Origin: Candidatus Heimdallarchaeota archaeon
Lineage (GTDB): Archaea > Asgardarchaeota > Heimdallarchaeia > Heimdallarchaeales > Heimdallarchaeaceae
Length of the DNA: 64,000 bases
Assembly (NCBI GenBank): GCA_016839945.1
Contig: JAEOTE010000019.1
Location: 326 to 64,325 of the forward strand
Reading direction: 5' to 3'
Position 1 is the first letter of the stretch, and the number at the start of each line of letters is the position of its first letter. Below, piece after piece: positions 5,645-50,279 of this stretch. A program made the position numbers and the translations under genes. The notes under the pieces were generated by a model that was not told where the DNA came from, did not search any database, and saw nothing but the letters and a program-made list of their open reading frames with translations.

Positions 5645-5660
5645 TTGAGAAAGAAAAAAA
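5645..5660 (-). terminator. oligo-T tract immediately after the last gene of the redox operon
   Basis: The minus strand reads TAA-A-TTTTTTTCTTTCTC directly after the stop at 5662-5664. Archaeal terminators are oligo-T runs. Confidence 0.4.
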
Positions 5661-5661
5661 T

Positions 5662-7323
5662 TTAGAGAGAGCTTTCATATAATTGAACAAGTCTATCTCT
5701 TACGATTTCGCTTCTGTACTCTGGGAGTAACATAGGACCATATCTCTTCTCTTTTAGCTTTAATGCATCCATTGTTTCAACTGTTTTTTTAACATGGTCT
5801 AGAGTCAGTTTTCCTACTTTAGCTTTCTTAATTTCTTTTGCAGCTTGGATACCTGCTCTTCTTCCAAAAACATTGACTTCAAGAAGAGAATTGCCCATCA
5901 ATCTGTTTTTTCCATGTACTCCTCCAGAAACTTCTCCTGCAATTAACAAACCAGGAACAGAGCTGTGACACCATTCATCATGTAGAACTCCACCATTTTG
6001 GTAATGAAGTGTTGGATATACAAGTACAGGATCTACTGTCATATCAATTCCGAACCTTTGCAGCATTCGATCCATAGCTGCAAGATTTTTATCTATAGTA
6101 CCCTTTCCTCTGATTTCTTCAATTAGAGGAGAGTCTAACCATACTCCTCTCATACCTGTTGGTGTCTCAATGTAATTATCAGTACTGCTACAACAACGAA
6201 TAATAGCAGAAGCTTCAACGTCTCTTGGTTCAAGAGGGTAGCATACTTGTTCACCATTTCTACCAATAACTTGAGCTCCTAATCCTCTTACTTTCTCGGT
6301 GATTAGGAGACCAACAATTTGTTCTGGATAAGCTGCTCCAGTTGGATGAAATTGTGTAGATTCTAAATTGCGAAGTTTAGCTCCTGTTCTATAAGCCAGT
6401 AACACACCATCCATTGTCGCACCATAATGATTGGTTGTTGGAAAACCAGCAACATGTAGTCTTCCAAATCCACCTGTAGCCATGATTGTTGTCTTAGCTC
6501 GTACAACAAAATATTGTTTTGTTTCTAGATGGTATAGAATTGCCCCTGTTACTCTTCCGGTTTCATCTGTTAATAGTTCTATTGCTGGTGTGAATTCTAA
6601 GGTTGGAATTTCTAGATTTCTGTATTCATCTCTGATTACTCTGAAAATTTCAAGTCCTGTATAATCTTTTGCACTATGCATTCTGAAACGAGAAGTACCT
6701 CCTCCAGAAAGAACCATGAAATTTCCCTCCTCAGTTAAGTCATACATAACACCTAAATCTTTATGCCATTTTATAATTTCAGGACCATCGTTTACAAGAG
6801 CTTTTGCTAGTTCAGGAATATTATCAAAATGACCTCCACCAATAGCATCTAAATAATGAATTAGAGGAGAATCTTCTGGTCTATCAGCAGCTTGAATCCC
6901 TCCTTGTGCCATAACGGTGTTAGCATCCCCGTGTCTTAGCTTTGAGCTAACTAAGATGTCATCGACTGGAATTCCAGAATAATGTGCCCAAATTGCAGCT
7001 GCTGTTCCTGCACCTCCAGCTCCAATGATTAAAACTCCAACATCATAATCTATTTTTGAGAGATCAATATCATCAGGATTAATAAGAGGGTAAGATTCAA
7101 GAACATCTGCAACTTCTACAGGAACGATATCTCCCTTATTTTGCCCGTAAGCAAGTGCCCTTTTTACATCTACCTTATAATCAGGATGATAATTTTTTAG
7201 AACTTCATCTCGTTCTTTCATTGTCATATGAGCACATACTTCATCTAATCTCTTACTTCGTGTTTTGTTAACATTGTCTATTGATTTTCTCATTTCTTCT
7301 GTGTATCCACCTGTTAGTTTCAT
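5662..7323 (-). CDS. FAD-dependent succinate dehydrogenase/fumarate reductase-family flavoprotein (SdhA/FrdA/TfrA/NadB-like)
   Basis: 553 aa. Motifs: GAGGAGTAAA dinucleotide fold, TVMAQGGIQAA, STQFHPTG, ITEKVRGLGA, GLLIAGEVSGGVHGKNRLMGNSLLEVNVFGRRAG. There is no His at the covalent-FAD position (ANT instead of SHT). About 90 aa of extra N-terminus precede the FAD fold. Confidence 0.8.
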   Translation of the reverse strand: MKLTGGYTEEMRKSIDNVNKTRSKRLDEVCAHMTMKERDEVLKNYHPDYKVDVKRALAYGQNKGDIVPVEVADVLESYPLINPDDIDLSKIDYDVGVLIIGAGGAGTAAAIWAHYSGIPVDDILVSSKLRHGDANTVMAQGGIQAADRPEDSPLIHYLDAIGGGHFDNIPELAKALVNDGPEIIKWHKDLGVMYDLTEEGNFMVLSGGGTSRFRMHSAKDYTGLEIFRVIRDEYRNLEIPTLEFTPAIELLTDETGRVTGAILYHLETKQYFVVRAKTTIMATGGFGRLHVAGFPTTNHYGATMDGVLLAYRTGAKLRNLESTQFHPTGAAYPEQIVGLLITEKVRGLGAQVIGRNGEQVCYPLEPRDVEASAIIRCCSSTDNYIETPTGMRGVWLDSPLIEEIRGKGTIDKNLAAMDRMLQRFGIDMTVDPVLVYPTLHYQNGGVLHDEWCHSSVPGLLIAGEVSGGVHGKNRLMGNSLLEVNVFGRRAGIQAAKEIKKAKVGKLTLDHVKKTVETMDALKLKEKRYGPMLLPEYRSEIVRDRLVQLYESSL

Positions 7324-7336
7324 TTTTGCACCTCTA

Positions 7337-8050
7337 TTACTCCTTATCTCTATTCTTATATCTCTCTTCTAGTTTTTCTTTAGAGAGAGCCATTAGCTCT
7401 TTGAATCCGTCTTCGTACTTACCATCTATGATTTCTTTGATTCTTTCATCAAGATAACTTGGAGCTATCATTAGATATTTGCCATAAAGTCGTCGTGCTA
7501 ATTCTGCTACATGGTATTGTGGGATTTCCGCAGGACAACGAATTGCACAAAGACCACAAGAAACACAATCGAAGCTTTCCTCCGCTGCTTTATCAATTTG
7601 ACCTTGTAGACTAAATTGAATATAATCCATCACCTGTATGTCCTGAGGACAAACTTTGCTGCATGCATTACAACTTAAACACCTTGCCACTTCAGGATAA
7701 AATCGAAGGATGGTATTTGCAGAAGGTGTAAGATTATTAATATCATAAGTTGGTTTGTCTGCTGGAACAAAAGGAAGTTGAGTTAAAACCATCCCATCTT
7801 CCACCATAGTTTGACAAGCTAGAGCTGTATAAATTCGAAAATCTCCTTCTTTTCTATAAACAGTTGAGCAAGCACCGCAGAAACCTGCCCTACAACCTGA
7901 ACCTCTGGTAAATTTGTAACCTGCATATTCCATTGCTTTCATTATGGTTAAAGTTGCGGGAACTTCATAAGCACTTCCCATTATGTAAATCTTAACATTT
8001 CCAGTAGTTTCTTTTTTTGTGTTTTTTGATTCTGTTTTTGCCTTAGACAT
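7337..8050 (-). CDS. SdhB/FrdB-like iron-sulfur subunit ([2Fe-2S] plus two Cys-cluster motifs)
   Basis: 237 aa. CRAGFCGAC..(n)..C is a plant-type 2Fe-2S pattern as in SdhB. It is followed by CLSCNACSKVCP and CVSCGLCAIRCP. Confidence 0.75.
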   Translation of the reverse strand: MSKAKTESKNTKKETTGNVKIYIMGSAYEVPATLTIMKAMEYAGYKFTRGSGCRAGFCGACSTVYRKEGDFRIYTALACQTMVEDGMVLTQLPFVPADKPTYDINNLTPSANTILRFYPEVARCLSCNACSKVCPQDIQVMDYIQFSLQGQIDKAAEESFDCVSCGLCAIRCPAEIPQYHVAELARRLYGKYLMIAPSYLDERIKEIIDGKYEDGFKELMALSKEKLEERYKNRDKE

Positions 8051-8060
8051 TTTATAACCT

Positions 8061-8972
8061 CTACTTGAATTTCAATTCTTTCAATAAAATTCGAGGATCA
8101 ATTTTGTGATCTTCAAAGTGATTTATTTCCACAGGCTCACCCATTGCTAATGCCATTAATTGACTAAAATAAAAAATTGGAATAGCTTCTTTTTTACCTG
8201 TTTTTTCCATTAACATCTTTTGTTGTTGATCTAGGTTGTAAGCGCATAAGGGACATGCTACTGCTAAAGCATTAGCTCCACGAATCATTGCTGAATCTAT
8301 AATTTTCTGAACTTGCCTTGTAACAATATCCTCATCACTAACAATGTGATAAGATCCACAACAATATTTGAACAATGGAGAAAATACAACTTCAGCACCT
8401 AGACTTTCTATTAAGTTTTCTAATACTGAAGGCATTTCTTCGTCATCTATCTTTGCTTCTTCTGGGTGTAGTAACATGCACCCATAGTAGGGGGTGACTT
8501 TAAAACCTTTCAATGGTTTGACTACCTTATTTGCAATCTTAGCGAAACCGATATTATCTCTTAATATCTCAAGAAAATGTTTCACTTCCATATCACTAGA
8601 ATAGGTCTCTTCATCATCTTCTAGTTGAAAATTAATTACTTCTAGTTTCTCAGGATCTACCAATACTTCACTATTTACTATTTTTAGTGTACTATTACAC
8701 ATTGAGCACAACGTCACTATATCCTGAGACGAATTTTCTAGCTCTTCAACGTGTTTTCTTGATCTAGCAAGTACTCTCACAGGAGCTATTCTTTTCATTA
8801 AGTTATCAGCTGTCATTGTGTGAACTGTGCCACAACAATTCCAATTAGGGATCTCTACGAGTTCAGCTTCCAGTTTCTTACTCACAGCTATTGCTGATTT
8901 CTCGAACCCTTTAGCATTTGTTTTTAGATTGCAACCTGGAAAGTACGAATAGTTAACCATTTCTTTTTTCAC
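8061..8972 (-). CDS. hdrB: heterodisulfide reductase subunit B-like protein (two CCG domains)
   Basis: 303 aa. YFPGCNLKT...NWNCCGT and YYGCMLL...KYCCGSY are two CCG motifs, plus ACPLCAYNLD. Confidence 0.85.
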   Translation of the reverse strand: MKKEMVNYSYFPGCNLKTNAKGFEKSAIAVSKKLEAELVEIPNWNCCGTVHTMTADNLMKRIAPVRVLARSRKHVEELENSSQDIVTLCSMCNSTLKIVNSEVLVDPEKLEVINFQLEDDEETYSSDMEVKHFLEILRDNIGFAKIANKVVKPLKGFKVTPYYGCMLLHPEEAKIDDEEMPSVLENLIESLGAEVVFSPLFKYCCGSYHIVSDEDIVTRQVQKIIDSAMIRGANALAVACPLCAYNLDQQQKMLMEKTGKKEAIPIFYFSQLMALAMGEPVEINHFEDHKIDPRILLKELKFK

Positions 8973-9379
8973 CCTGTCATTTTCCTGAAGCTCCCAACTA
9001 ATGCAATGTTGGGGAGTTTTTCCAGAACATCTTTAGGAATATCTGCGATTTTGACTTTTTCTGGTTCCTCTCTCAATATATACTCACGCACAGCTTCCAT
9101 TAATGCTGCAACATCGATTTCACGAGGACACCTTATAGTGCAAGTTAAACAACTAGCACAGATCCAATGAGTATTGGCTTGTAATACTTTTTCTTTTTGA
9201 CCCATTTGTATATGGTTGATCAGCTGATTGACAGTTAAATCCATTTTACTACTGAATGGACAGCCTGCGCTGCATTTTCCACACTGATAGCAAGAATATA
9301 TGTTCTGTCCGGAAATTTCCTCAATCTTCTTAATGAATTCTTTTTCTTCCTGTCCGAATTTAATATACTCATACGACAT
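8969..9379 (-). CDS. hdrC: heterodisulfide reductase subunit C-like 4Fe-4S dicluster protein
   Basis: 136 aa with CYQCGKCSAGCP and CASCLTCTIRCP. Overlaps hdrB by 4 nt. Confidence 0.8.
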   Translation of the reverse strand: MSYEYIKFGQEEKEFIKKIEEISGQNIYSCYQCGKCSAGCPFSSKMDLTVNQLINHIQMGQKEKVLQANTHWICASCLTCTIRCPREIDVAALMEAVREYILREEPEKVKIADIPKDVLEKLPNIALVGSFRKMTG

Positions 9380-9863
9380 TTGTTTCTATTTCCTCCTTTA
9401 TTTCTTGGAGTATATATTTGTAAACTTCATCTACAATTTCATCAAATTTGGTTTGAATTTCTGGAGTAAGCTCATCGCTGAACTCCAATACATTGAAAAT
9501 TTCGATTCCAAGGATTGCAATATCCTTTGGAATATCATCATACATTTGATTACAGAATTCTAAAGCAGTAAAGAAGTCCATATTATGATAATCAGAAATA
9601 TGTAAAGCGCTAGCAAAATCATCCGGTTGAAGGTGAACAACTGTTCCCTTTGGATATTTGCCAGTTTGTATAGAATCAACTAAGATGATTTTTTCATATC
9701 CTCTAAAAATTTCTACAAGACCTATTCCTGCTAAAGAAACATCTTCTATTATTTCTACAAATTCTGGTAAGGAGTAAGTATCTCTAATATACTCTACTAC
9801 TTTGATGCCTATTGCATCATCACCAACTATAGGATTACCCAAACCAATTAATCCAATTTTCAT
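9369..9863 (-). CDS. [NiFe]-hydrogenase maturation endopeptidase (HycI/FrhD family)
   Basis: 164 aa. The N-terminus MKIGLIGLGNPIVGDDAIGIKV is the family signature. MvhA carries a cleavable tail after DPCLACATH. Confidence 0.8.
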   Translation of the reverse strand: MKIGLIGLGNPIVGDDAIGIKVVEYIRDTYSLPEFVEIIEDVSLAGIGLVEIFRGYEKIILVDSIQTGKYPKGTVVHLQPDDFASALHISDYHNMDFFTALEFCNQMYDDIPKDIAILGIEIFNVLEFSDELTPEIQTKFDEIVDEVYKYILQEIKEEIETNVV

Positions 9864-9884
9864 AGCTTCTTCCTTACCATTTTT

Positions 9885-11852
9885 TTATCCTTCACTAAGT
9901 GCTTGAATCAGATTTAAGATCTGACTATCTGTATATCCCAGATGATTAATAGCTCCATTTAAACATGCAGCTGCACAAGATCCACATCCTTTGCATACTG
10001 CTTCATTCACACTAGCAATTTCATATGAATGTCCATATCTATCTATTGCTTTCAATTCAATAGCTCCATAAGGACAAGATTCAACACAAAAACCACAACC
10101 TCTACATAAAAGCTCATCTACTTGTGCAATTGTTGCTTCAACTTCAAGTTCTTTTTGAGCTAATATGTTACATGCTTTTACTGCAGCTCTTCCAGCTTGA
10201 GATACAGTGTCTGGTATATCTCTTGGACCAGAAGCTGTTCCTGCAACAAAAACACCTGTAATAGCAGTTTCAACAGGCTTTAATTTTGGATGAGCCTCTC
10301 TAACAAAACCTATAATATCAGTTGAAAGTTTGAGTATCTTGGAAATTTCTTTTGTCCCCTCACTAGGTACCATACCTGTAGCTAATACCACTAAGTCGGC
10401 ATGTAATTCAACAGATTCAGCAGTTAAAGTATTTACTCCTCTAACTAGAATTTTATCAACATCTTGAATAAGTTCTGAGACCTTTCCTCTGATGAACATT
10501 ACATTCTCTTCTTCAGCAGCTCTTTGATAAAATTCTTCATAGTCCTTCCCCCCAGTTCTAATGTCGATGTAAAAATTAATCGCAAGAGCATCAGGATCCA
10601 GCTGTTTGAACATTAAAGCATGCTTAGTTGAATACATACAGCATATCCTTGAACAGTGAGGAAGATGTTTTGCTGGATCACGAGAGCCTGCACAATGAAT
10701 GAAAACTATTGTTTTAGGTACTTTTCCATCTGAAGGACGTCTGATGACTCCTTCTGTTGGTCCACCAGCTGAAATTAATCTTTCAAATTCTAATCCTGAG
10801 ACGACATCATGAATTGACCCATAACCATATTCACCAAGGTTTTCGATTGGATAAGTATCAAAACCTGTTGCAACTACGATAGCACCAAATTCCTCTTCCA
10901 TTATTTCCGGTTGCATATCAAAATCGATTGCTTCTGGTTCACAAACATCTTTGCATTTGGAACAAACGAGAGGTTCAATGCCTAAACAAGTTTTTGGATC
11001 TATTATATAAGATGCTGGTATAGCTTGAGGATATGAGATATAAATTGCTCTTCGTGGAGCAAGTTTTTCATTAAACTCATGATGAACAATCACAGGGCAA
11101 ACTGGTACACAATCATCACATAGTGTACATTTATCTTCAATAACATATCTAGGATTTCTCCTAATTTTAACTTTAAAATTCCCTATAAAACCATCTACTT
11201 CTGTAACTTCACTATTAGCTAGCAATGTAATATTAGGGTGACGACTAACTTCTACCATTTTAGGACTTAATATACAAGCTGAACAATCTAAAGTTGGAAA
11301 AGTTTTATCTAGTTGAGCCATTTTTCCACCAATTGTAGAATCTTTCTCAACTAGTACTACTTCATAACCTGTATTAGCAATGTCCAAAGCAGCTTGAATA
11401 CCTGCAATACCTCCTCCAATCACTAAAGCTTTGGAAGTTACACCTACTTTCTTCCTCCCCAGTGGTTTTATAGCAGCTGATTTTAGAACTGCTCCTTTCA
11501 CAAGTGCAGCAGCTTTTTCAGTTCCTTTTTCTACATCTTTGTGTACCCAAGAACATTGTTCTCGGATATTGACCATTTCTAAAAGGTAAGGATTTAATCC
11601 TTTATCTTCAAGCACTGTTCTAAAAGTGGGTTCATGCATTCGAGGTGAACATGCAGCTACAACAATCCTATCGAGATTAAACTCGTCTATATCCTCTTTG
11701 ATGAGTTCTTGTCCAGGTTCAGAGCATTTGTATTTGTAAATACGACTAACCTCAACATTGGGTAAATCTTTTACACTTTCTGCTACTTTCTCTAAGTCGA
11801 CTGTACCTGCAATATTACTCCCACATTCACAGAGATAAACACCAACTTTCAT
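9885..11852 (-). CDS. hdrA: heterodisulfide reductase subunit A (FAD and multi-[4Fe-4S] bifurcating flavoprotein), copy 2
   Basis: 655 aa. Motifs: VIGGGIAGIQAALDIA..VVLVEK, FPTLDCSACIL, CTLCDDCVPVCP, CRGCGFCVESCP, CKGCGSCAAAC. Confidence 0.9.
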   Translation of the reverse strand: MKVGVYLCECGSNIAGTVDLEKVAESVKDLPNVEVSRIYKYKCSEPGQELIKEDIDEFNLDRIVVAACSPRMHEPTFRTVLEDKGLNPYLLEMVNIREQCSWVHKDVEKGTEKAAALVKGAVLKSAAIKPLGRKKVGVTSKALVIGGGIAGIQAALDIANTGYEVVLVEKDSTIGGKMAQLDKTFPTLDCSACILSPKMVEVSRHPNITLLANSEVTEVDGFIGNFKVKIRRNPRYVIEDKCTLCDDCVPVCPVIVHHEFNEKLAPRRAIYISYPQAIPASYIIDPKTCLGIEPLVCSKCKDVCEPEAIDFDMQPEIMEEEFGAIVVATGFDTYPIENLGEYGYGSIHDVVSGLEFERLISAGGPTEGVIRRPSDGKVPKTIVFIHCAGSRDPAKHLPHCSRICCMYSTKHALMFKQLDPDALAINFYIDIRTGGKDYEEFYQRAAEEENVMFIRGKVSELIQDVDKILVRGVNTLTAESVELHADLVVLATGMVPSEGTKEISKILKLSTDIIGFVREAHPKLKPVETAITGVFVAGTASGPRDIPDTVSQAGRAAVKACNILAQKELEVEATIAQVDELLCRGCGFCVESCPYGAIELKAIDRYGHSYEIASVNEAVCKGCGSCAAACLNGAINHLGYTDSQILNLIQALSEG

Positions 11853-11968
11853 TTTTGCTCAACCTCATTGTAAAATATTCTAGATTTTAAGTTGTTAGTA
11901 TGAAAAATCAGACCTTTATTAGAGTACACTTCTTCCCAATTTAAAGCCTTTAATTCATTATTTTCCAT
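11849..11968 (-). CDS. candidate 39-aa small ORF between mvhA and hdrA
   Basis: Hand translation: MENNELKALNWEEVYSNKGLIFHTNNLKSRIFYNEVEQK*. GGTGG lies 5-9 nt upstream. The ATG starts 10 nt after the mvhA stop, and its TGA overlaps the hdrA ATG (ATGA). Below the size cut-off of the ORF track. Confidence 0.3.
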   Translation of the reverse strand: MENNELKALNWEEVYSNKGLIFHTNNLKSRIFYNEVEQK

Positions 11969-11977
11969 TTCAACCAC

Positions 11978-13453
11978 CTAAAACTTTCTTTTTAATATTC
12001 TTATTAATTTCTTATTCTGATCATAAATTTCTACTTGCAAAGGCATTTGGCCTGGTAATGAGTGAGTAGCACATGCTAAACAGGGGTCATAGGCCCTAAA
12101 AGCCATCTCTATTTTGTTTAATCCATCATCATTGTATTGTCCACGTTGTATCATTTCTTGTGCTGCTTGTTTAACACTTAAGCAAATAGCTGCGTTATTA
12201 TTTGTTGTTGCAACAATTATATTCGCATCTGTTACTCTACCCTCTTTATTAGTTTTATAATGGTGATAAAGTGTTCCACGAGGAGCTTCTATAACTCCAA
12301 CTCCTTCTCCTGTTATCATACTTTTAGTTACTGGAGTTCTGTATTTATCTGAAAAGACGTCAGGATTTTCAGCTATTTCTTTCATTCTTTCTCCGCAGTA
12401 GAGGATTTCAACTAATCTAGCCCAGTTAAATCCTAAAGTGTGATGAGATGGTTTTCCACCTAATATTTTGTACATATTTTCCATAGCTTCCTGAGCTAAG
12501 GGAGTTTTTATTTTATCAACAACGTTTAATCTTGCAAGAGAATTAACTCTATACAAACCATTATCTGGTTCAGCTACGAATCCTTTCCAACCTATTTTTT
12601 TCAGATATGGGAATTTCAGATATGACCAAGGTTCAACATGTTCTGATAAATAATCCAGATATTCTTTAGCATGATATTTTGCGACTTCTTTTCCTTTACT
12701 ATTTACTATCTTAACAGTATCATGTTGATAGAAATCTAATTCATTATCTGGTCCTACTACTGACATATAATAGGATTCCATTTTATAAGCATCTGAATCA
12801 ATAAGAGACATTAATTTATCATTTTTTACAACCAAATCATCAAATACTTTAAGACCCAGTTTACCAAATTCTATTGTCTCTATTGACATTTTTAGAATAT
12901 CTTCAGCTTGTTCTTGAGTTATTCCTTTACTTATACCACCTGGAATCACTGTTACTGGATGAGTGGCTTTAGCACCAACCATCGCTTGAATTTTTTGAGC
13001 AAAACCTCTGATTTTTATTGCTTCTTTTGCAACTTCAGGAAAAGCTTGGTAAATTCCTAAAATGTTGTGAGTACCTGGTTTGGTTTTTTCTCCTAACACA
13101 AAATCTGGTAGAGCAAAAGCATAGAAATGCAGTATGTGACTATGGATGTTATGCCCAAGTGCTAAAATCTCTCTTAGGAGCTTTGCTGTTTTTGGTGGGT
13201 CTATACCATATATCTGATCTGCTGCTTTTGCTGGAGCTAAATGATGTGGGATTGGACATACTCCACATATCCTTGGAGTTATTCTTAGAACTTCTTCAAT
13301 AGGTCTACCTTGTACAAATCTTTCAAAACCTCGAAGTTCTACTACTTGAAAATAAGCATCCTTTACGTTTCCTTCATCATTTAATACTACTGTAATTTTA
13401 GCTAAGCCTTCTAGTCTAGTGACAGGATCTATTGTTACAACTTTTCCACTCAT
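11978..13453 (-). CDS. mvhA: [NiFe] hydrogenase large subunit, MvhA-type (group 3c)
   Basis: 491 aa. N-terminal RICGVCPIPH (RxCGxCxxxH) and C-terminal DPCLACATH followed by a 27-aa tail. Confidence 0.9.
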   Translation of the reverse strand: MSGKVVTIDPVTRLEGLAKITVVLNDEGNVKDAYFQVVELRGFERFVQGRPIEEVLRITPRICGVCPIPHHLAPAKAADQIYGIDPPKTAKLLREILALGHNIHSHILHFYAFALPDFVLGEKTKPGTHNILGIYQAFPEVAKEAIKIRGFAQKIQAMVGAKATHPVTVIPGGISKGITQEQAEDILKMSIETIEFGKLGLKVFDDLVVKNDKLMSLIDSDAYKMESYYMSVVGPDNELDFYQHDTVKIVNSKGKEVAKYHAKEYLDYLSEHVEPWSYLKFPYLKKIGWKGFVAEPDNGLYRVNSLARLNVVDKIKTPLAQEAMENMYKILGGKPSHHTLGFNWARLVEILYCGERMKEIAENPDVFSDKYRTPVTKSMITGEGVGVIEAPRGTLYHHYKTNKEGRVTDANIIVATTNNNAAICLSVKQAAQEMIQRGQYNDDGLNKIEMAFRAYDPCLACATHSLPGQMPLQVEIYDQNKKLIRILKRKF

Positions 13454-14451
13454 TTTATCTCCTCCTCTGAATGAAGATTATAGATAAGTGATTTACCATA
13501 TGTAAAACGATAAAATGTTCCTAAGGGGTCAGGAATTTTATCTACTACTTTGTGCAATTCTTCTTCTGACATATCTTCTTCTACATCAACGTCTAGTAAT
13601 GATGTTAAAGCTGAAATCATCTTTAAACCATGATCTTTTACTTTGTCAGTTGGACCTAAACAACCTCTGCATCCAACATTCATCTTTGTGCATAAAGCAT
13701 CACAACCTGCTCGAGTTGCAGGTCCCATACAAATAATACCTTGAGGAATTAAACACAAATCAGGATCAATTTCTTGAACCTCTTGAGGAGAAATGAAATC
13801 TTTGAATGAGATTTCTTCTGGTTTTGTTCTTCCACACTCTTCACATAGTGTTTTTGTATCAGCAATAACTGTACCTTTAGGAGGTAATTGACCAGTTGAG
13901 GCAAAAACTTTCAAAACCTCAACAACTTGTTCAATTAATGGAACCATAGGGGGGCATCCTGGAACATAATAATCAATATCAATAACAGCATCTAATGCAT
14001 CAGCATCTTTTCTGATTCCAGGTAATGTTAGTTCTGTACCTTTAATTGTGATAGATGTTTGGGGGACAGTGCCTTCAGGATTGTCCATTGAAGGTACATC
14101 TTTATACACAACATCAAACATACTTTTCTCATAAGGCATATTAGCTAAGCTTGGTATTCCTCCAAAGTTCGCACAAGCACCAAAAGCTACTACAACTTTA
14201 GATTTCTTTCTAAGTATTTTAGCTATTTCAGCATCTTCTGTAGTCCTGATGGAACCATGGTAAATCCCAACATCTACTTCTCCATCCTTAAGATTCTTTA
14301 AATCATCAATTTTGAAATCCATAGCTGTAGGCCAGAATTTGAAATCAACTAAATCAAAGACTTCTAGTATTTTTTCATTTAAATCTAAGATAGCTACATC
14401 GCATCCGGCACATGTAGCTCCTAATGCAATCGCTAGGTTTATTTTCTTCAT
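13450..14451 (-). CDS. mvhG: [NiFe] hydrogenase small subunit, MvhG-type (no Tat signal)
   Basis: 333 aa. LGATCAGCDVAILD at the N-terminus, GACANFGGIP, further Cys clusters. Overlaps both neighbours by 4 nt. Confidence 0.85.
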   Translation of the reverse strand: MKKINLAIALGATCAGCDVAILDLNEKILEVFDLVDFKFWPTAMDFKIDDLKNLKDGEVDVGIYHGSIRTTEDAEIAKILRKKSKVVVAFGACANFGGIPSLANMPYEKSMFDVVYKDVPSMDNPEGTVPQTSITIKGTELTLPGIRKDADALDAVIDIDYYVPGCPPMVPLIEQVVEVLKVFASTGQLPPKGTVIADTKTLCEECGRTKPEEISFKDFISPQEVQEIDPDLCLIPQGIICMGPATRAGCDALCTKMNVGCRGCLGPTDKVKDHGLKMISALTSLLDVDVEEDMSEEELHKVVDKIPDPLGTFYRFTYGKSLIYNLHSEEEIK

Positions 14452-14903
14452 AATTCCTCCCCTCCTTTACCATTAATTTTGTATGGAGGAAGCTTTTTTA
14501 GCTCATCAACCATAGCAGTAACTGTTTTAGCAAATTTCGCAGCTTCAGTTGCAGAAATCCAGGTTAATCTAAATCTTTTTGGACTTACACCAACCTGCTT
14601 TAATAATTTTGATAATATTGACATTCTTCGAAATGTCTTATAATTCCCTGTTTTATAATGACAATCTCCAAAATTACAACCAGTTATAAGAACCCCGTCT
14701 GCTCCTTCTAAAAATGCCTCTACTACATGTTGTGGATCAATTCTACTTGAACAATTCACCATTATTGGAAGAACATTTGGAGGATATTGTAGTCTTGATG
14801 TCCCTGCTAGATCAGCTCCTTTTCCTGAGCACCACCTGCATAAGAAAAGAATTATGTTAGGATTTGGATTTTGGGACTCTGTTTCTTGCGTTGTTTTACT
14901 CAT
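14448..14903 (-). CDS. mvhD: MvhD, methyl-viologen-reducing hydrogenase delta subunit ([2Fe-2S] adaptor to HdrA)
   Basis: 151 aa with FLCRWCSGKGADLAG...ITGCNFGDCHY, the MvhD/FlpD signature. Confidence 0.85.
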   Translation of the reverse strand: MSKTTQETESQNPNPNIILFLCRWCSGKGADLAGTSRLQYPPNVLPIMVNCSSRIDPQHVVEAFLEGADGVLITGCNFGDCHYKTGNYKTFRRMSILSKLLKQVGVSPKRFRLTWISATEAAKFAKTVTAMVDELKKLPPYKINGKGGEEL

Positions 14904-14905
14904 TT

Positions 14906-16861
14906 CTACCCACTCCTTAGTAGTGCTTTAATGCTCGCACTAATACTTTCATATGTAGAATTTCTCAGTTCAATGCTTCCTGATGGACATGCAGAAGCAC
15001 AGCTCCCACACCCTTCACATAGAGCTTCTCTTACAACTATTTTATTCAGAGGTTCATCATAATAGATTGCTCCATAAGGACACACATGAATACAAGTATG
15101 ACAAACTCCACATGTATTTTCATCAATTTCTGCAATAACTGGATCTCTGTCCATAAAATCAGAGGATAAAATGGTTTCAGCTTTTGCAGCTGCTCCAGAT
15201 GCTTGTGCTACAGTTTCGGGAATATCCTTTGGACCAGATGCAGTACCTGCAACAAATACTCCAGCTATTGCTGTTTCAACTGGTTTTAGTTTTGGATGAG
15301 CTTCTTTCACAAATCCTTTATTATCACAAGAGAGTTTGAGTATGTTTGAAATTTCTTTTGTACCCTCACTAGGTAACAATCCTGTTGCTAAAACAACTAA
15401 ATCAGTGTGTAACTCGACAGCTTCAGAAGTAAGAGTATTCACTCCTCTGACTAGAATTCGTTCACCATCTTGCAGAAGTTCTGATACTTTCCCTCTAATA
15501 TATATTACACCTTCCTCTTCTGCAGCTCTCTTGTAAAATTCTTCATAATCTTTACCTGCAGTTCTAACATCGATGTAGAAGTTTATAGCTGTTCCATCAT
15601 GAACAAGATGTTTGTATTGCAAAGCATGCTTTGTTGCATACATGCAACAAATCTTTGAACAATATTCTAGATGCTTAGCAGGATCACGGGAACCTGCACA
15701 ATGAATAAAAACAACTGATTCTGGAATTTTCCCATCTGAGGGGCGTCTTATAACTCCTTGAGTAGGTCCATTTGCTGCTAAGATTCTTTCGAATTCCAAA
15801 CCTGAAATTACGTCATGAATAGTTCCGTATCCATACTCACCTATACTTTCTATTGGATAGGGTGTATAACCTGTTGCTACAATTATGGCACCAAATTCCT
15901 CTTCAATTATTTCCGGTTGCATGTCAAAATCGATTGCACGTGGTTCACACACTTCTTTACATTTAGCACAAATTAAGGGATCAATACCTAAACAAGTGTT
16001 AGGATCAATGATATAGTTAGCTGGAACAGCTTGTGGAAAAGCAATATAAATTGCTTTACGAGGAGTTAATCCTACATTATATTCATCGTGAACTATAACT
16101 GGACAAACTGATACACAATCATCACAAAGTGTGCATTTTTCTTCGATTACATAACGTGGTTTTTTGTTTATCCTTACTTTGAAGCTCCCAACATATCCAT
16201 CTATATTTTCTACTTCACTGTTTGTTAAAAGACTAATATTTGGATGTCTACCAACTGCAACCATTTTTGGAGTTAAGATACATTGAGAACAATCTAAAGT
16301 TGGGAAAGTTTCAGCAAGTTGAGCCATCTTTCCGCCAATCGTTGAATCTTTTTCTACAAGTACCACTTCATAACCAGCATCTGCAATATCTAAAGCAGCT
16401 TGGATTCCAGCTACCCCTCCACCAATCACCAAAGCTTTTTGTGTTACTGGAATTTGATAAGGAACTAACGGTTGATTTCTTTTTACTTTTTCAATAGTTG
16501 ATTCAATAATTCTAATCGTTTTTTCTGTAGCTTTATCCTTTTCCTCATGAACCCAGCTACATTGCTCTCTTATATTTGCCATTTCTGTCAAATACTGATT
16601 CAAACCTGCTTCTTTGGTTGCAATTCTGAAGGTATCTTCATGCATATCTTTGCTACAAGCTGCAACTACAACTCTATCCAGATTGTGTTTATTAATAGCA
16701 TCTTTCAAAACAGTTTGCCCTGGCTCTGAGCACATATACATATTACTTTCAATATGAATTACTTCATCAACATCTTTTATTTTTTCAACAACTTTTTCTA
16801 TATCTACTGTGTGGGCAATATTTCTCCCACAATGGCAAACAAAGACCCCTACTCTGCTCAT
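14906..16861 (-). CDS. hdrA: heterodisulfide reductase subunit A, copy 1
   Basis: 651 aa, collinear with copy 2 over its whole length, for example FPTLDCSQCILTPKMV..CTLCDDCVSVCP..IHCAGSRDPAKHL. Confidence 0.9.
   Translation of the reverse strand: MSRVGVFVCHCGRNIAHTVDIEKVVEKIKDVDEVIHIESNMYMCSEPGQTVLKDAINKHNLDRVVVAACSKDMHEDTFRIATKEAGLNQYLTEMANIREQCSWVHEEKDKATEKTIRIIESTIEKVKRNQPLVPYQIPVTQKALVIGGGVAGIQAALDIADAGYEVVLVEKDSTIGGKMAQLAETFPTLDCSQCILTPKMVAVGRHPNISLLTNSEVENIDGYVGSFKVRINKKPRYVIEEKCTLCDDCVSVCPVIVHDEYNVGLTPRKAIYIAFPQAVPANYIIDPNTCLGIDPLICAKCKEVCEPRAIDFDMQPEIIEEEFGAIIVATGYTPYPIESIGEYGYGTIHDVISGLEFERILAANGPTQGVIRRPSDGKIPESVVFIHCAGSRDPAKHLEYCSKICCMYATKHALQYKHLVHDGTAINFYIDVRTAGKDYEEFYKRAAEEEGVIYIRGKVSELLQDGERILVRGVNTLTSEAVELHTDLVVLATGLLPSEGTKEISNILKLSCDNKGFVKEAHPKLKPVETAIAGVFVAGTASGPKDIPETVAQASGAAAKAETILSSDFMDRDPVIAEIDENTCGVCHTCIHVCPYGAIYYDEPLNKIVVREALCEGCGSCASACPSGSIELRNSTYESISASIKALLRSG
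14906..16861 (-). repeat. dispersed ~2 kb gene duplication; partner copy is 9885..11852
   Basis: Long blocks of near-identical DNA, for example ttccggttgcatgtcaaaatcgattgc (about 15.91 kb) versus ttccggttgcatatcaaaatcgattgc (about 10.91 kb). By eye the proteins are roughly 70% identical. Confidence 0.8.
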
Positions 16862-16864
16862 TTT

Positions 16865-17413
16865 TTATCCTTCTTGACTGTGCTCTTTTCCTTTTTGGAA
16901 TGCAATAAGATTTTTTTCAACAAACCTTGCTTTTATTTTCTTTTTCATTACTTCAATTAGAGATTCCTCAGAAACAATGTCTTTAGTATTAGCACAAACA
17001 AACCCTAACATCACTATATTTGCAAAAATTCTATTCCCAAGAGTTTCAGCAATTTTAGTAGCAGGTATTTTGTATATTTTCTTAGCTTTGTCCGCATGCT
17101 CATCTAGTGATACTAGATTTTCTTCAACAAACAATATTCCCCCCTTCTTAAGTTTTGGAATGTATTTATCATACGCTTCTTCAGACATAACGACAAAATA
17201 ATCTAATTCTGTAGCTTTAGGATAATCGATATCAGCTGTATCAATAACAACATCAGAGCTACTAGCACCACCTCTGCTTTCAGGGCCATAGCTTTGTGTC
17301 ATAACAGAGTTTTTGTTTTTTTCGTATAAAGAAACAGCTTCCCCAACTAGTCTCCCCATAAGACCAATACCTTGACCACCAAAACCTGCAAATCGTACTT
17401 CAATTCTACTCAT
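16865..17413 (-). CDS. 2-oxoacid:ferredoxin oxidoreductase gamma subunit
   Basis: 182 aa with FAGFGGQGIGLMG and the SYGPESRGG motif. Confidence 0.85.
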   Translation of the reverse strand: MSRIEVRFAGFGGQGIGLMGRLVGEAVSLYEKNKNSVMTQSYGPESRGGASSSDVVIDTADIDYPKATELDYFVVMSEEAYDKYIPKLKKGGILFVEENLVSLDEHADKAKKIYKIPATKIAETLGNRIFANIVMLGFVCANTKDIVSEESLIEVMKKKIKARFVEKNLIAFQKGKEHSQEG

Positions 17414-18285
17414 TTCTTACCCCCCTTATTTAAAGCAGCTTCACCTTTTCTTTGAATTTCTAACAAATGGTCTGTTAAAGTTGGTTTATCTTCAATATCA
17501 ACAAATTTACCTACAATCATTGGACCATCTTTTTCTATATCTACTTTCTTTGTATCCATTCCATGCTGAAGAACTGCTTTCTCTTTGAAGTATTCTAGAA
17601 TCTTTTTTCCTTCAGCTAACTGGTTACGACGCCCATAAGTTGTAGGGCAACTACCTAGAACCTCTACAAATGAGAAACCCTTCTTTGTTATGGCTTCAAC
17701 AAAAGAATCTTTAACTCTTCTGACATCTAGAGCTGTCCATCGAGCAACATATACAGCTCCACAAGAAGCTGCTAAATCTGGTAAATTAAATGGTTCTTCA
17801 ACTGTTCCATAAGGTGTAGTAGATTGAAATTGTCCTACATAAGAAGTCGGACCAACTTGCCCTCCAGTCATTCCGTAATTGAAATTGTTAACACAGATAA
17901 CTGTAATGTCAGCATTTCTTCTAGCTGCGTGGATGAAGTGGTTACCACCTATAGCAAACAAATCTCCATCACCAGATACAACAATAACTTTACGATCAGG
18001 ATCAGTTACACTTAAACCAATCGCAAAAGGTATTGCTCTACCATGAGTAGTGTGAAAACTATCAAAATTAAGATATCCCGCAATTCTCCCAGTACATCCT
18101 ATACCTGATACAACAGCTACTTTTTTTGGATCAACTCCAGCTTCAAGTATGGCTTCTACAAGTACGGTGGTTATTGATCCTAAGCTACAGCCGGGACAGA
18201 AAATGTGTGGGATTCTACCCTCTCTTAGATAACCATCAAGTGGATGATCATGTGATTCAATTAATTCTATATTTTCTTCAGCCAT
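17410..18285 (-). CDS. 2-oxoacid:ferredoxin oxidoreductase beta subunit (TPP-binding)
   Basis: 291 aa. FCPGCSLG, GIGCTGR and SGDGDLFAIGGNH (the TPP GDG motif). Confidence 0.85.
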   Translation of the reverse strand: MAEENIELIESHDHPLDGYLREGRIPHIFCPGCSLGSITTVLVEAILEAGVDPKKVAVVSGIGCTGRIAGYLNFDSFHTTHGRAIPFAIGLSVTDPDRKVIVVSGDGDLFAIGGNHFIHAARRNADITVICVNNFNYGMTGGQVGPTSYVGQFQSTTPYGTVEEPFNLPDLAASCGAVYVARWTALDVRRVKDSFVEAITKKGFSFVEVLGSCPTTYGRRNQLAEGKKILEYFKEKAVLQHGMDTKKVDIEKDGPMIVGKFVDIEDKPTLTDHLLEIQRKGEAALNKGGKK

Positions 18286-18286
18286 T

Positions 18287-19447
18287 TTAACTCCTCTCTA
18301 TCTCTTTTAAAATGTCTTCAGGCAAGTGTATATCTCCCCCTAGTTTGAAGACTCCCTTTACTTCAGTTTTACCATGAGCTGCTCTTTCAACTTCCCTGGT
18401 TATTTGACCATAATTGATCTCAGGAACAATTATCTTCTTTACTTGGTCAGCTAGTTTTTCAATATGATCATCAGCGAAAGGCCAGATTGTAATTAATCTT
18501 AACAAGCCTGCTTTGATTCCTTTTTTACGAGCTCGATTTACTGCACCCTTTGCAACTCTAGCACTTGAGCCAAAAGAAACAAACGCTATATCGGCATCAT
18601 CTAGCTGATATTCTTCGACTTTTATTATTTTATCTTTGTTCAGTCGGATTTTGTCATTAATCCTCTTTACGAGTTTTTCTTGAGCTTCCGAGTTAATGAC
18701 AGGATAACCTCTTTCATCATGAGTTAATCCTGTTGTCATTATTCTATAACCGCTACTAGCTGTAGCCATTGGCGGTACTAAATCTTTGTCCGGTAAATAT
18801 GGTAAGTGTTCTTCTGGTGGTCCAGTAGGGGTTTTTCTATTTACACGTACAATTTTCTCTTCTTTTGGAATTACTAACTTTTCACTCATATGACCAAGAG
18901 CTTCATCCATTAACACTGTAACTGGTAACCTATACTTCTCTGCAAAATTAAAAGAATCGATTGTTAAATCAAAGCACTCTTGTACGGTACTCGGTGTGAT
19001 AGCAATAGGTTCGTAATCACCATGTGATCCCCATTTAGCTTGCATAATGTCTTGTTGTCCAACTAAAGTAGGTAAGCCAGTTGATGGTCCACCTCTCTGT
19101 ACATTTACAATAACACAAGGTGTTTCAGTCATCATACCAAGTCCGATATTTTCAAGCATTAATGAATAACCTGGACCTGATGTGGCGGTCATACTCTTAT
19201 AGCCGCCCCAAGAAGCTCCTAGAATTGAAGCAATTGAGGCAATTTCATCCTCAAATTGAACAAAATGGCCTTTTACTTGTGGAAGACGCAATGCTATGTG
19301 TTCAGCAATTTCAGAGCTAGGAGTTATTGGGTAACCACCAAAGAATTTACAGCCTGCAGCAATAGCACCTTCAGCTGCAGCATGATTACCTGTAGTAAAG
19401 TGTTCTCCTGTAAGTACTTCTCGTGGTAGTATTTTTTGTTCACTCAT
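18287..19447 (-). CDS. 2-oxoacid:ferredoxin oxidoreductase alpha subunit
   Basis: 386 aa. GNHAAAEGAIAAGCKFFGGYPITPSSEI and TSGPGYSLM blocks. Confidence 0.85.
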   Translation of the reverse strand: MSEQKILPREVLTGEHFTTGNHAAAEGAIAAGCKFFGGYPITPSSEIAEHIALRLPQVKGHFVQFEDEIASIASILGASWGGYKSMTATSGPGYSLMLENIGLGMMTETPCVIVNVQRGGPSTGLPTLVGQQDIMQAKWGSHGDYEPIAITPSTVQECFDLTIDSFNFAEKYRLPVTVLMDEALGHMSEKLVIPKEEKIVRVNRKTPTGPPEEHLPYLPDKDLVPPMATASSGYRIMTTGLTHDERGYPVINSEAQEKLVKRINDKIRLNKDKIIKVEEYQLDDADIAFVSFGSSARVAKGAVNRARKKGIKAGLLRLITIWPFADDHIEKLADQVKKIIVPEINYGQITREVERAAHGKTEVKGVFKLGGDIHLPEDILKEIERS

Positions 19448-19766
19448 CCTCTTCTGAACCTCCTTTATCTTCTTCTGGAACTTTTACATAAATTGCAAAT
19501 TCGGGACAGATTAACTCACAAAAATGACATTCTGCACAATCATCAAAGGTTTTCCCATCAACTAATTTAGGGGGGTGGTAGCCTTTTTCATTAATCTCAT
19601 CGGATTTTTCGAGTATCTCTTCAGGACAATGAATAATACACCATTCACATTCTTTACATCTTTCTTTAATGATGAAAACTTGTGGGGCTTTACCTTTATA
19701 TTTTCGAATGTCGATAAAAGCCGGCCATTCCGGCTTTTTTCGTCTTCTTTCCATTGATGAATTCAT
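19440..19766 (-). CDS. 2-oxoacid:ferredoxin oxidoreductase delta subunit (2x[4Fe-4S] ferredoxin)
   Basis: 108 aa with CKECEWCIIHCP and CAECHFCELICP. Overlaps alpha by 8 nt. The delta-alpha-beta-gamma order is kor-like; the substrate cannot be assigned. Confidence 0.8.
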   Translation of the reverse strand: MNSSMERRRKKPEWPAFIDIRKYKGKAPQVFIIKERCKECEWCIIHCPEEILEKSDEINEKGYHPPKLVDGKTFDDCAECHFCELICPEFAIYVKVPEEDKGGSEEDE

Positions 19767-50278: not shown

Positions 50279-50279
50279 T

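Follow-up and report, generated by a model that had tools for sequence, protein, structure and literature searches.

A putative H2-driven bifurcating unit of Hdr, Kor and a fumarate-reductase-like flavoenzyme, with an additional HdrA, in a Heimdallarchaeia-like archaeon

Within a 64,000-nucleotide stretch of contig JAEOTE010000019.1 (the window, meaning the whole of the DNA that was analysed), 14 consecutive open reading frames (ORFs) on the minus strand, running from position 19766 down to 5662, encode in this order a Kor-type 2-oxoacid:ferredoxin oxidoreductase (OFOR; subunits δαβγ), HdrA-1, MvhD, MvhG, MvhA, a second HdrA (HdrA-2), a HycI-type protease, HdrC, HdrB, an iron–sulfur (FeS) subunit and a flavoprotein. 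From its gene content, the locus appears to be an H2-driven archaeal variant of the previously hypothesized bifurcating unit of Hdr, Kor and fumarate reductase, with an extra HdrA. Our preferred reading, to which we assign a probability of roughly 0.55, is that the products form a soluble HdrA-based bifurcating system in which electrons from H2 reduce both ferredoxin and fumarate, the ferredoxin feeding a 2-oxoglutarate synthase through a link provided by succinyl-CoA synthetase (SucCD). A first-pass annotation of the same DNA had listed 14 minus-strand genes with operon-type junctions and had suggested that the OFOR, the Hdr/Mvh proteins and an Sdh/Tfr-like flavoenzyme may be one electron-routing unit. 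The ORF list returned the same junction values, Pfam and NCBIfam assigned an identity to all 14 products and bore out the gene calls one by one, and the notion of a single unit is strongly supported by synteny across at least ten phyla. The genes and the matches behind each assignment are as follows.

19440..19766, minus strand: OFOR delta, ferredoxin-like with two [4Fe-4S] clusters, 108 amino acids; Pfam Fer4_7, best NCBIfam matches OGOR_delta and OorD
18287..19447, minus strand: OFOR alpha, Kor/2-oxoglutarate clade, 386 amino acids; POR_N and PFOR_II, NF006412 at 565 bits against a cut-off of 411
17410..18285, minus strand: OFOR beta, thiamine-pyrophosphate-binding, 291 amino acids; TPP_enzyme_C, best NCBIfam match 2-oxoglutarate ferredoxin oxidoreductase beta, under its cut-off
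16865..17413, minus strand: OFOR gamma, 182 amino acids; Pfam POR, best NCBIfam match the generic 2-oxoacid:ferredoxin oxidoreductase gamma, then OorC
14906..16861, minus strand: HdrA-1, bifurcating subunit with flavin adenine dinucleotide (FAD) and Fe–S clusters; 666 bits to HdrA of the Mvh–Hdr complex (5ODC_A) over residues 3–634
14448..14903, minus strand: MvhD, [2Fe-2S] adaptor between hydrogenase and HdrA; Pfam FlpD at 165 bits, VhuD/HdrA2 C-terminal region
13450..14451, minus strand: MvhG, [NiFe] hydrogenase small subunit; Oxidored_q6, best NCBIfam match VhuG
11978..13453, minus strand: MvhA, large subunit of a group 3c-type [NiFe] hydrogenase; 410 bits to MvhA (5ODC_F)
9885..11852, minus strand: HdrA-2, a second intact HdrA; full length, 66% identical to HdrA-1
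9369..9863, minus strand: HycI/HybD-type hydrogenase maturation endopeptidase; Pfam HycI, TIGR00072 at 100.5 bits against a cut-off of 47
8969..9379, minus strand: HdrC-like subunit with two [4Fe-4S] clusters, 136 amino acids; Fer4_8/Fer4_17, best NCBIfam matches HdrC and QmoC
8061..8972, minus strand: HdrB-like subunit with two complete CCG motifs; Pfam CCG twice
7337..8050, minus strand: FeS subunit of the flavoenzyme; Fer2/Fer2_4 and Fer4, N-terminus matching that of TfrB
5662..7323, minus strand: FrdA/TfrA-like flavoprotein, 553 amino acids; FAD_binding_2 at 194 bits over residues 97–480

In the scheme that we propose, MvhAG would oxidize H2 and MvhD would pass the resulting electrons on to HdrA, at whose FAD they would bifurcate: the low-potential electron would go uphill to ferredoxin (Fd), and the high-potential one would travel downhill by way of HdrC, HdrB with its non-cubane clusters and the FeS subunit to the non-covalently bound FAD of the flavoprotein and on to fumarate, giving succinate. 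The net reaction would be 2 H2 + Fd(ox) + fumarate → Fd(red) + succinate. HdrC, HdrB, FeS and the flavoprotein would together constitute a split thiol:fumarate reductase (Tfr) that is wired into HdrA and has no need of the heterodisulfide of coenzymes M and B (CoM/CoB). The reduced ferredoxin would be spent, one per fumarate, by the Kor-type OFOR acting as a 2-oxoglutarate synthase, and SucCD would convert succinate to succinyl-CoA, so completing a reductive branch of the tricarboxylic acid (TCA) cycle from fumarate through succinate and succinyl-CoA to 2-oxoglutarate. Such a branch would be stoichiometrically matched, because one reduced ferredoxin is made per fumarate and one is used per succinyl-CoA carboxylated. 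Methanogens run the reductive branch to 2-oxoglutarate with Tfr, Mvh–Hdr and Kor, and the branch proposed here would be that route minus the thiol coenzymes.

The linkage on which this scheme builds recurs widely. The flavoprotein belongs to a family whose members are 57–91% identical over their full length and which has at least 584 carriers among GTDB species representatives. The 14 window proteins were run by tblastn against 86 fetched loci (identified below by L numbers), and components were counted in the 41 non-duplicate loci that reach at least 8 kb upstream and at least 4.5 kb downstream of the flavoprotein gene. The FeS gene is linked in all 41 and lies immediately upstream of the flavoprotein gene in every one of them; HdrB is linked in 36, HdrC and HdrA in 35 each, MvhD in 33 and MvhAG in 20, and OFOR alpha/beta in at least 26, a lower bound given flanks of 10 kb at most. 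FeS, HdrBC, HdrA, MvhD and OFOR occur together in 23/41 loci, and with MvhAG as well in 14/41; the FeS–flavoprotein pair is all that is found in 4/41. A survey of synteny across Asgard and other archaeal genomes was what the first-pass annotation had pointed to as a check on its proposal, and in the archaeal and bacterial loci counted here the linkage is kept, the core plus OFOR being present in those 23.

These loci span Heimdall/Asgard archaea, Thermoplasmata, ‘Thermococci’, Acetothermia, Thermotogae, Anaerolineae, Chloroflexaceae, Fraserbacteria, WOR-3 and Eubacteriales. The complete set is present in metagenome-assembled genomes (MAGs) of Heimdall/Asgard archaea (L001–L003, L007), in a ‘Thermococci’-labelled archaeon (L005) and in many Thermoplasmata, and also in Acetothermia (L025, L033), Thermotogae (L043) and Anaerolineae (L069). 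OFOR is encoded upstream in Asgard and some other loci and directly downstream of the flavoprotein in Thermoplasmata, Acetothermia, Thermotogae and Chloroflexi. Because the placement of OFOR differs by lineage and the linkage persists all the same, the association has outlasted rearrangement, and this is strong evidence of functional coupling. HdrC–HdrB–FeS–flavoprotein also stands alone as a four-gene module in Methanofastidiosa, Theionarchaea, Mnemosynella and Culexarchaeia. Other arrangements were seen as well. The FeS–flavoprotein pair occurs without Hdr, Mvh or OFOR within 8–10 kb in unclassified bacterial MAGs (L040, L060, L063, L083), and is likewise solitary on shorter WOR-3 and Stahlbacteria contigs (L044, L058, L065, L084). 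The Thermoplasmata locus L021 (JAGGXG010000053, 568-11644) has the order MvhD–MvhG–MvhA–HdrC–HdrB–HdrA–HdrC–HdrB–FeS–flavoprotein, with two HdrCB pairs.

HdrA-1 is 77% identical to the sole HdrA of L001 and L002, against 63–65% for HdrA-2, and by this measure it is the predicted orthologue of the Mvh-linked HdrA of relatives; both paralogues score under the NCBIfam equivalog cut-off for HdrA (821 and 824 against 1100). The HdrA layout of an FAD domain, an N-terminal cluster domain and ferredoxin domains, one set inserted and one C-terminal, is nevertheless present. MvhA contains the nickel-site motifs RICGVC and DPCLACATH and, after the His of the latter, a 26-residue C-terminal tail that looks to be of the kind cleaved by HycI-type proteases during proteolytic maturation. 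In the single-HdrA relatives L001 (Ca. Heimdallarchaeum aukensis), L002 and L003, where the order is OFOR–HdrA–MvhDGA–HycI–HdrCB–FeS–flavoprotein, hycI lies directly 3′ of mvhA. With their cofactor motifs intact, the individual proteins of the window cluster look functional.

The donor module, unlike the core, is interchangeable. A relative at 88% identity (L006) has four extra genes between mvhA and the second hdrA, encoding an MvhD-like protein, an Fe–S protein, a HydB/AsrA-like protein and a HydG/AsrB-like NAD-binding flavoprotein, which by their domain types would correspond to the subunits of the NAD(P)H dehydrogenase FlxABCD. This Flx-like module is found alongside MvhAG in L006 and in place of MvhAG in the Heimdall AB_125-type loci L009–L011 and L014, in Eubacteriales (L029) and in Chloroflexaceae (L062). 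The predicted donor would accordingly be H2 where MvhAG is present and NAD(P)H where the Flx-like module takes its place.

On the high-potential side, HdrB has exactly ten cysteines (14, 46, 47, 89, 92, 165, 204, 205, 240 and 243), arranged in two CX(31-38)CCX(34-41)CXXC motifs that are predicted to bind two non-cubane [4Fe-4S] clusters, and it aligns over its full length, with all Cys aligned, to the HdrB proteins of 9SFI, 8RVU and 5ODC (115–129 bits). Its score of 143 bits to SdhE of methylmenaquinol:fumarate reductase almost equals that to the HdrB model, whose equivalog cut-off it misses (151 against 345). HdrC has two CxxCxxCxxxCP motifs and likewise falls below its cut-off (70 against 160). 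The FeS subunit combines an N-terminal CX4CX2CX17C motif with two CxxCxxCxxxCP motifs, that is, one [2Fe-2S] and two [4Fe-4S] clusters; against the PDB it gave generic ferredoxin-domain matches and one marginal match to an Fe–S protein that partners an Sdh/Frd flavoprotein (9LAY_B). The FeS N-terminus, HdrC and HdrB match successive segments (19–85, 164–204 and 259–471) of the model for the single-chain TfrB of methanogens, each covering its own part at 27–37 bits against a cut-off of 385. This collinearity is a Rosetta-stone indication that FeS, HdrC and HdrB may work in contact.

The cluster contains one HdrCB pair, which abuts the FeS–flavoprotein genes. Because this single pair adjoins FeS and the flavoprotein and the TfrB-model matches are collinear, we favour a direct wire, with physical contact between HdrB and FeS, over a free thiol. 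A stronger form of the same idea, in which HdrA, HdrC, HdrB, FeS and the flavoprotein would be one hard-wired megacomplex that accepts MvhAGD or Flx as a plug-in and bifurcates electrons, free of thiols, to fumarate and to ferredoxin/Kor, is offered tentatively, as less likely than not.

The flavoprotein itself bears on both the substrate and the direction. Its best NCBIfam match is TfrA (285 bits against a cut-off of 718), followed by NadB (249 against 453), with the SdhA and FrdA models lower; positions 427–546 of the TfrA hidden Markov model (HMM) are left unmatched, in keeping with a shorter C-terminus, and the Succ_DH_flav_C domain is absent. Comparison with the PDB by sequence and by Foldseek returned no solved structure in its subfamily. 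An AlphaFold2 model (predicted local distance difference test score (pLDDT) 81; predicted template modelling score (pTM) 0.83) had E. coli FrdA as its top Foldseek match, and FrdA/SdhA flavoproteins were found at template modelling (TM) scores of 0.62–0.66. Aligned with E. coli SdhA, His242, Thr254/Glu255, His354 and Arg399 correspond to His326, Thr342/Glu343, His440 and Arg474, and Arg286 corresponds to Arg367 by motif (GRDV and PRDV), an assignment made by inspection where the HMMER alignment is out of register. The covalent FAD site, His45 of SdhA, is replaced by Asn135. The dicarboxylate-site residues, the PRDV motif and Asn135 are all invariant in a 60-sequence alignment of the family.

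In the Sdh/Frd family it is the covalent flavin link that enables succinate oxidation; members with non-covalent FAD, such as soluble fumarate reductases and FrdA His44 variants, reduce fumarate and are poor at oxidizing succinate. Because the covalent-FAD His is absent from the window protein and non-covalent members oxidize succinate poorly, its sequence argues for a fumarate reductase. No gene for a membrane anchor or quinone site was found among the 14 cluster products. A further family trait is a highly conserved N-terminal extension of 95 amino acids, predicted to be folded (pLDDT 81–94), with the invariant residues H46-P47-D48-Y49, K54, G60, G64 and E70; Pfam returned nothing for this extension and the solved Sdh/Frd/NadB structures lack an equivalent; it might be a docking domain.

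The ferredoxin produced would be consumed by the OFOR. By its subunit matches this enzyme groups with the 2-oxoglutarate (Kor) clade and not with the Por, Vor or Ior clades: the alpha subunit scores 420 bits to 1YD7, 275 and 250 bits to the 2-oxoglutarate:ferredoxin oxidoreductases (OGOR) 8YS5 and 6N2N, and 54 bits to a pyruvate enzyme. The delta subunit has two CxxCxxCxxxCP motifs. Scores fall short of the equivalog cut-offs specific to 2-oxoglutarate (406 against 579; 239 against 364), and 2-oxoglutarate as the substrate, with the direction of the reaction, is proposed from the gene context only. The context includes a single further locus of the window.

49412..51422, minus strand: SucD and SucC, succinyl-CoA synthetase (ADP-forming); Pfam, NCBIfam at 389 bits against a cut-off of 370 and 425 against 336

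SucCD lies outside the cluster, 30 kb away, and the functional association that we infer is that it would link succinate, the product of the flavoenzyme, to succinyl-CoA, the substrate of Kor. It was the sole yield of a scan of the window for TCA and methanogenesis genes. The first-pass annotation had stated that methanogenesis genes are absent, and none was found among the window ORFs of at least 110 amino acids. The genes that flank the cluster are unrelated to it, with no adjacent ATP-citrate lyase or other reductive TCA (rTCA) genes.

Thermodynamics also favour fumarate reduction. With ferredoxin set at −500 mV, ΔG for 2 H2 + Fd(ox) + fumarate → Fd(red) + succinate is −70 kJ at 1 atm, −24 kJ at 10 Pa and −12.6 kJ at 1 Pa H2, compared with +9 kJ at 10 Pa H2 for the methanogen version with heterodisulfide. 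The reverse reaction, confurcation from succinate, comes to +24 kJ at 10 Pa and +12.6 kJ at 1 Pa H2 for a fumarate/succinate ratio of 1, and is exergonic only at H2 of 1 Pa or less combined with a ratio of 1e-3 or less.

Several observations weigh against this scheme, and we take each with the alternative to which it lends support. HdrB retains complete CCG sites, which carry out disulfide chemistry in methanogens, so that a thiol or disulfide intermediate would be possible; and L021, in the Thermoplasmata, carries two HdrCB pairs, one beside Mvh and one beside FeS–flavoprotein, which could reflect separate Hdr and Tfr-like enzymes. The genes might then encode separate, co-regulated enzymes, with MvhADG–HdrA(BC) reducing an unknown disulfide, of low molecular weight or on a protein, and a Tfr-like thiol:fumarate reductase re-oxidizing the thiol, Kor being tied in by free ferredoxin alone. 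That both catalytic CCG motifs keep their full complement of Cys, ten in total, fits this arrangement, as does the use of thiols by methanogen Tfr (Heim 1998, cited in PMC6315080); HdrC–HdrB–FeS–flavoprotein is solitary in the methanogen lineage that has CoM/CoB (L004, L020), and Rubin-Blum et al. (PMC6315080) give a route of this kind as one of two options. We consider it unlikely, if worth keeping in mind: the window and most loci have a single HdrCB pair, which both enzymes would need, and no thiol-coenzyme genes were seen among the window ORFs of at least 110 amino acids, a search that did not extend to the rest of the genome. Its net chemistry and direction would be the same as those of the direct wire, making it a variant of mechanism, not of function.

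Direction is the other vulnerable point, and that of the Kor reaction is the weakest step of the proposed H2-driven scheme. Kor could well run oxidatively in a glutamate-rich or peptide-fermenting cell, and the cultured Asgard relatives are described as peptide-fermenting H2 producers whose Mvh–Hdr has been read as H2-evolving (PMC7015854; bioRxiv 10.1101/2025.02.26.640444). The first-pass annotation preferred this direction: ferredoxin reduced by 2-oxoacid oxidation and electrons from succinate, the latter arriving through flavoprotein, FeS and HdrBC, would be merged at HdrA and released as H2 for a syntrophic partner. It is consistent with the interpretation of Mvh–Hdr as confurcating in Asgard isolates, which are H2-producing amino-acid fermenters (PMC7015854), with the commonly oxidative role of Kor-type enzymes in peptide fermenters, with the reversibility in principle of Hdr-type bifurcation, and with a glutamate dehydrogenase near the cluster in Ca. 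Heimdallarchaeum aukensis. That gene is found about 1 kb past the downstream end of the cluster (CP084166, L001:12681-14033), and its product would connect 2-oxoglutarate with glutamate in either direction. We nevertheless regard H2-evolving confurcation as improbable: Asn stands in place of the covalent-FAD His in 60/60 family members, the reaction remains endergonic by the 24 and 12.6 kJ given above unless both H2 and the fumarate/succinate ratio are very low, and the same cluster occurs in autotrophs, where it is tied to the reductive TCA cycle (PMC6315080, PMC11636981). The reverse option that the annotation had also allowed, H2 driving the reduction of ferredoxin and fumarate, is the better fit to both the non-covalent-FAD Asn and the energetics.

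The equivalog cut-offs of NCBIfam for TfrA, TfrB and HdrA/B/C are all missed, so that substrates are not transferable by homology. A flavoenzyme acting on some other compound, for example an unsaturated or amino dicarboxylate (as in L-aspartate oxidase), within a cluster that would be an Hdr-based bifurcating reductase for that compound, would be in line with the failure of the flavoprotein to reach any curated cut-off, with its conserved 95-residue extension and absent Succ_DH_flav_C and with the lack of a solved structure in the subfamily, and is nonetheless very improbable: every residue that Sdh/Frd enzymes use to bind or protonate fumarate is invariant, an SdhB/TfrB-like Fe–S partner is always present whereas NadB-type enzymes are without one, and the neighbouring genes time and again include an OFOR of the 2-oxoglutarate clade, joined in published clusters by other rTCA genes.

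The last point against the H2-driven scheme concerns transcription: a conserved TATA-like element in the one long spacer of the cluster means that the cluster may be two transcripts.

11853..11977, minus strand: 125-nucleotide spacer between MvhA and HdrA-2 with a T5 run, an 18-nucleotide element and a GAGGT ribosome-binding site; from the sequence and comparison with L007 and L006

In L007, the nearest relative, whose flanking genes encode proteins about 90% identical to those of the window (rate of synonymous substitution (dS) about 1), the spacer is about 77 nucleotides long, and all that is conserved is the 18-nucleotide element AACAACTTAAAATCTAGA (11879-11896) and the GAGGT ribosome-binding site. 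Even though synonymous sites in the flanking genes are nearly saturated (dS about 1), this TATA-like element, some 40 nucleotides ahead of the HdrA-2 start, is 94% conserved. We regard it as a candidate internal archaeal promoter, and the cluster may be transcribed as one unit or as two. The first-pass annotation had placed a coupled small ORF in this gap. An ORF of 39 codons does run from 11968 to 11849, stop included, and its stop overlaps the HdrA-2 start as ATGA; because the L007 spacer is shorter and has stops in all three frames, it is probably spurious, and as it is not conserved in L007 we discarded it.

The same spacer is the site where relatives carry flx-like genes, and HdrA-2 shows a corresponding affinity: it is 73–78% identical to the Flx-linked HdrA of L006, L009–L011 and L014, compared with 64–65% for HdrA-1. 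It is therefore, on identity, the predicted orthologue of the HdrA that sits behind the Flx-like NAD(P)H module in relatives, and in the window it would be an orphan. No remnant of flx was found in the spacer by tblastn and blastn against L006 and L007. HdrA-2 has a ratio of non-synonymous to synonymous substitution (dN/dS) of 0.052 relative to L007. In the simplest history, flx-hdrA would have been inserted between mvhA and hycI, giving the state seen in L006, and flx would later have disappeared from the line leading to the window and L007, leaving behind an intact, constrained orphan HdrA-2 and the 125-nucleotide spacer. The two HdrA paralogues, which share one HdrBC, perhaps form a heterodimer. 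An HdrA gene that is uncalled in the public record was noticed in the Asgardarchaeia MAG JBNGVH010000002 (L003:2617-4590), with a single in-frame TGA at codon 509. Selenocysteine was ruled out there, as the TGA aligns to Leu and not to Cys; the more plausible readings are a sequencing error, a pseudogene or recoding of the stop codon.

The remainder of the cluster is tightly packed. From OFOR delta to MvhA the successive junctions are an overlap of 8 nucleotides, a gap of 1, an overlap of 4, gaps of 3 and 2 and two overlaps of 4; from MvhA to the flavoprotein they are the gap of 125, a gap of 21, overlaps of 11 and 4 and gaps of 10 and 13. The cluster is bounded on either side by likely control regions.

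19767..19986, minus strand: upstream AT-rich intergenic region with TATA-like boxes; from the sequence, candidate cluster promoter
5645..5661, minus strand: oligo-T tract, T7 then CTTTCTC, directly 3′ of the last stop; from the sequence

The AT-rich region is likely to be the promoter of the cluster, and the oligo-T tract, which the first-pass annotation had mentioned and which was seen in the sequence as a T7 run, is likely to be an archaeal terminator. All ten genes comparable with L007, HdrA-2 among them, have dN/dS of 0.02–0.09 at dS of about 1, which points to strong purifying selection. Because of these low ratios and the recurrence of the gene set across phyla, the arrangement is far beyond chance.

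As for the host, the window has a G+C content of 30–37%, and because its proteins are 72–91% identical to those of Heimdall-type Asgard MAGs, the DNA can be assigned on similarity to a Heimdallarchaeia-like archaeon. A look-up for a sequence identical to the window flavoprotein gave no match. Eukaryote-like signature proteins are encoded in the window, namely Arf/Ras-family small GTPases (19987-20637 (+) and 52556-53125 (+)) and a RING-finger protein (47843-49381 (+)), and these are consistent with an Asgard origin; the first of the GTPases, which is Arf-like, is the divergent neighbour of the promoter region. Directly downstream of the cluster are tandem paralogous genes for His_Phos_1 histidine phosphatases (4392-4958 and 5014-5580, minus strand), a pair that is also found 3′ of the cluster in L006 and has no obvious functional tie to it. 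Two unusually large and unrelated proteins are encoded elsewhere in the window, a 1908-amino-acid Lhr-type helicase fused to an AlkZ-like DNA glycosylase region (55121-60847 (+)) and a 1393-amino-acid FtsX/MacB-like permease (36079-40260 (-)).

A related cluster has been described before. Rubin-Blum et al. 2019 (PMC6315080, Supplementary Note 3) reported frdBA-hdrCB-korDABC-hdrA-flxDCBA in tubeworm symbionts (Ca. Endoriftia and the Escarpia symbiont) and in Thioflavicoccus mobilis, and suggested that the products make up a single bifurcating complex, with ferredoxin/OGOR on one side and fumarate reductase on the other; co-expression evidence for an Flx–Hdr–Kor–Tfr cluster was added later (Mitchell et al. 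2024, PMC11636981). In archaea, Adam et al. (bioRxiv 10.1101/2021.08.02.454722) reported synteny between Tfr and an Hdr-like complex in Mnemosynellales and stated that reductases of this type have been put forward for some Asgard lineages, Tfr was mentioned in Sifarchaeia (Sun et al. 2021, PMC9723677), and Asgard MvhADG–HdrABC was described as an H2-evolving confurcating hydrogenase and a marker of syntrophy (Imachi et al., PMC7015854; 2025 preprint bioRxiv 10.1101/2025.02.26.640444). A literature search, with subscription journals outside its scope, returned no account of an Mvh-type Kor–Hdr–Frd cluster or of its breadth across phyla, and no biochemical test of any version. The first-pass remark that no such arrangement was known to have been characterized as a unit holds for the biochemistry, none of which was found, and needs correction for the Flx version, which had been described and proposed as one complex (PMC6315080, PMC11636981).

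The window cluster shares with flxABCD-hdrABC-korABCD-tfrAB a set of co-directional, interspersed genes for HdrA, an MvhD/FlxD adaptor, HdrC, HdrB, FrdB/TfrB-like and FrdA/TfrA-like proteins and a four-subunit Kor, and the Flx-type form is itself carried by the Heimdall relatives L009–L011 and L014 and by the bacteria L029 and L062. It differs in its donor, which is the [NiFe] hydrogenase MvhAG with HycI, pointing to H2 rather than NADH, and in the absence of flxABCD; its host is an Asgard archaeon, there are no adjacent genes for ATP-citrate lyase or the rTCA cycle, and it has the orphan second HdrA. The gammaproteobacterial ‘TfrA’ may belong to the 550-residue subfamily of the window protein. 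As regards FlxABCD–HdrABC of Desulfovibrio (Ramos et al. 2015, cited in PMC6315080), the extra genes of the window’s relatives match the Flx subunit types and lie upstream of HdrA, whereas the window appears to have lost flx, and the acceptor proposed in Desulfovibrio is DsrC and not a fumarate reductase.

Methanogen MvhADG–HdrABC (5ODC; Wagner et al. 2017) is matched over the full length of HdrA (666 bits), MvhA (410 bits) and HdrB (115 bits), with FAD, Fe–S, NiFe and CCG motifs intact and with the MvhD adaptor and small subunit present in the window too. There, HdrCB stands alone; in the window it is gene-linked to an Fe–S/flavoprotein pair, and two HdrA share one HdrBC. This linkage suggests fumarate as the terminal acceptor in place of CoM-S-S-CoB. 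TfrAB of Methanothermobacter (Heim et al. 1998) likewise combines a soluble flavoprotein with a [2Fe-2S]/[4Fe-4S] module and HdrB-type CCG domains, but its TfrB is one polypeptide, whereas the window divides the equivalent among three genes with two additional [4Fe-4S] clusters; the window flavoprotein is extended at the N-terminus, is shorter at the C-terminus and scores far under the curated cut-offs, and thiol donors are possibly unnecessary to it. In the type E succinate:quinone oxidoreductases and methylmenaquinol:fumarate reductase, a CCG-domain subunit (SdhE) is partnered with SdhA/SdhB-like subunits as it is here; those enzymes are membrane- and quinone-linked and have covalent FAD, features that are missing from the window system, which is linked instead to HdrA and a hydrogenase. 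With respiratory complex II the flavoprotein shares its fold and catalytic residues (SdhA H242, T254, E255, R286, H354 and R399), without the His45 that carries the covalent 8-alpha-N3-histidyl FAD and without a membrane anchor or quinone site.

What serves as the high-potential acceptor of HdrABC in organisms without CoM/CoB is a long-standing question, and the cluster suggests that it may be fumarate, reached through a split Tfr-like module. If the hard-wired form of the proposal were true, fumarate would be the physiological HdrABC acceptor in a large set of non-methanogens, of at least 584 species representatives from more than 10 phyla. Fumarate as acceptor (+33 mV) keeps H2-driven reduction of ferredoxin exergonic at 1–10 Pa H2, unlike the methanogen reaction, and because of this the spread of the cluster among sediment anaerobes would be explained. 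That an unchanging core pairs with either Mvh or Flx as donor is a clear case of modular evolution in bifurcating enzymes. For the Asgard archaea, recent surveys take possession of Mvh–Hdr as grounds for calling a genome ‘syntrophic’ (bioRxiv 10.1101/2025.02.26.640444). If the hard-wired form is true, Heimdall-type MvhADG–HdrABC, now taken as a marker of H2-evolving syntrophy, would be a consumer of H2 at very low H2 that feeds a reductive branch of the TCA cycle, and whether Asgard archaea are makers or consumers of H2 is central to syntrophy models of eukaryogenesis.

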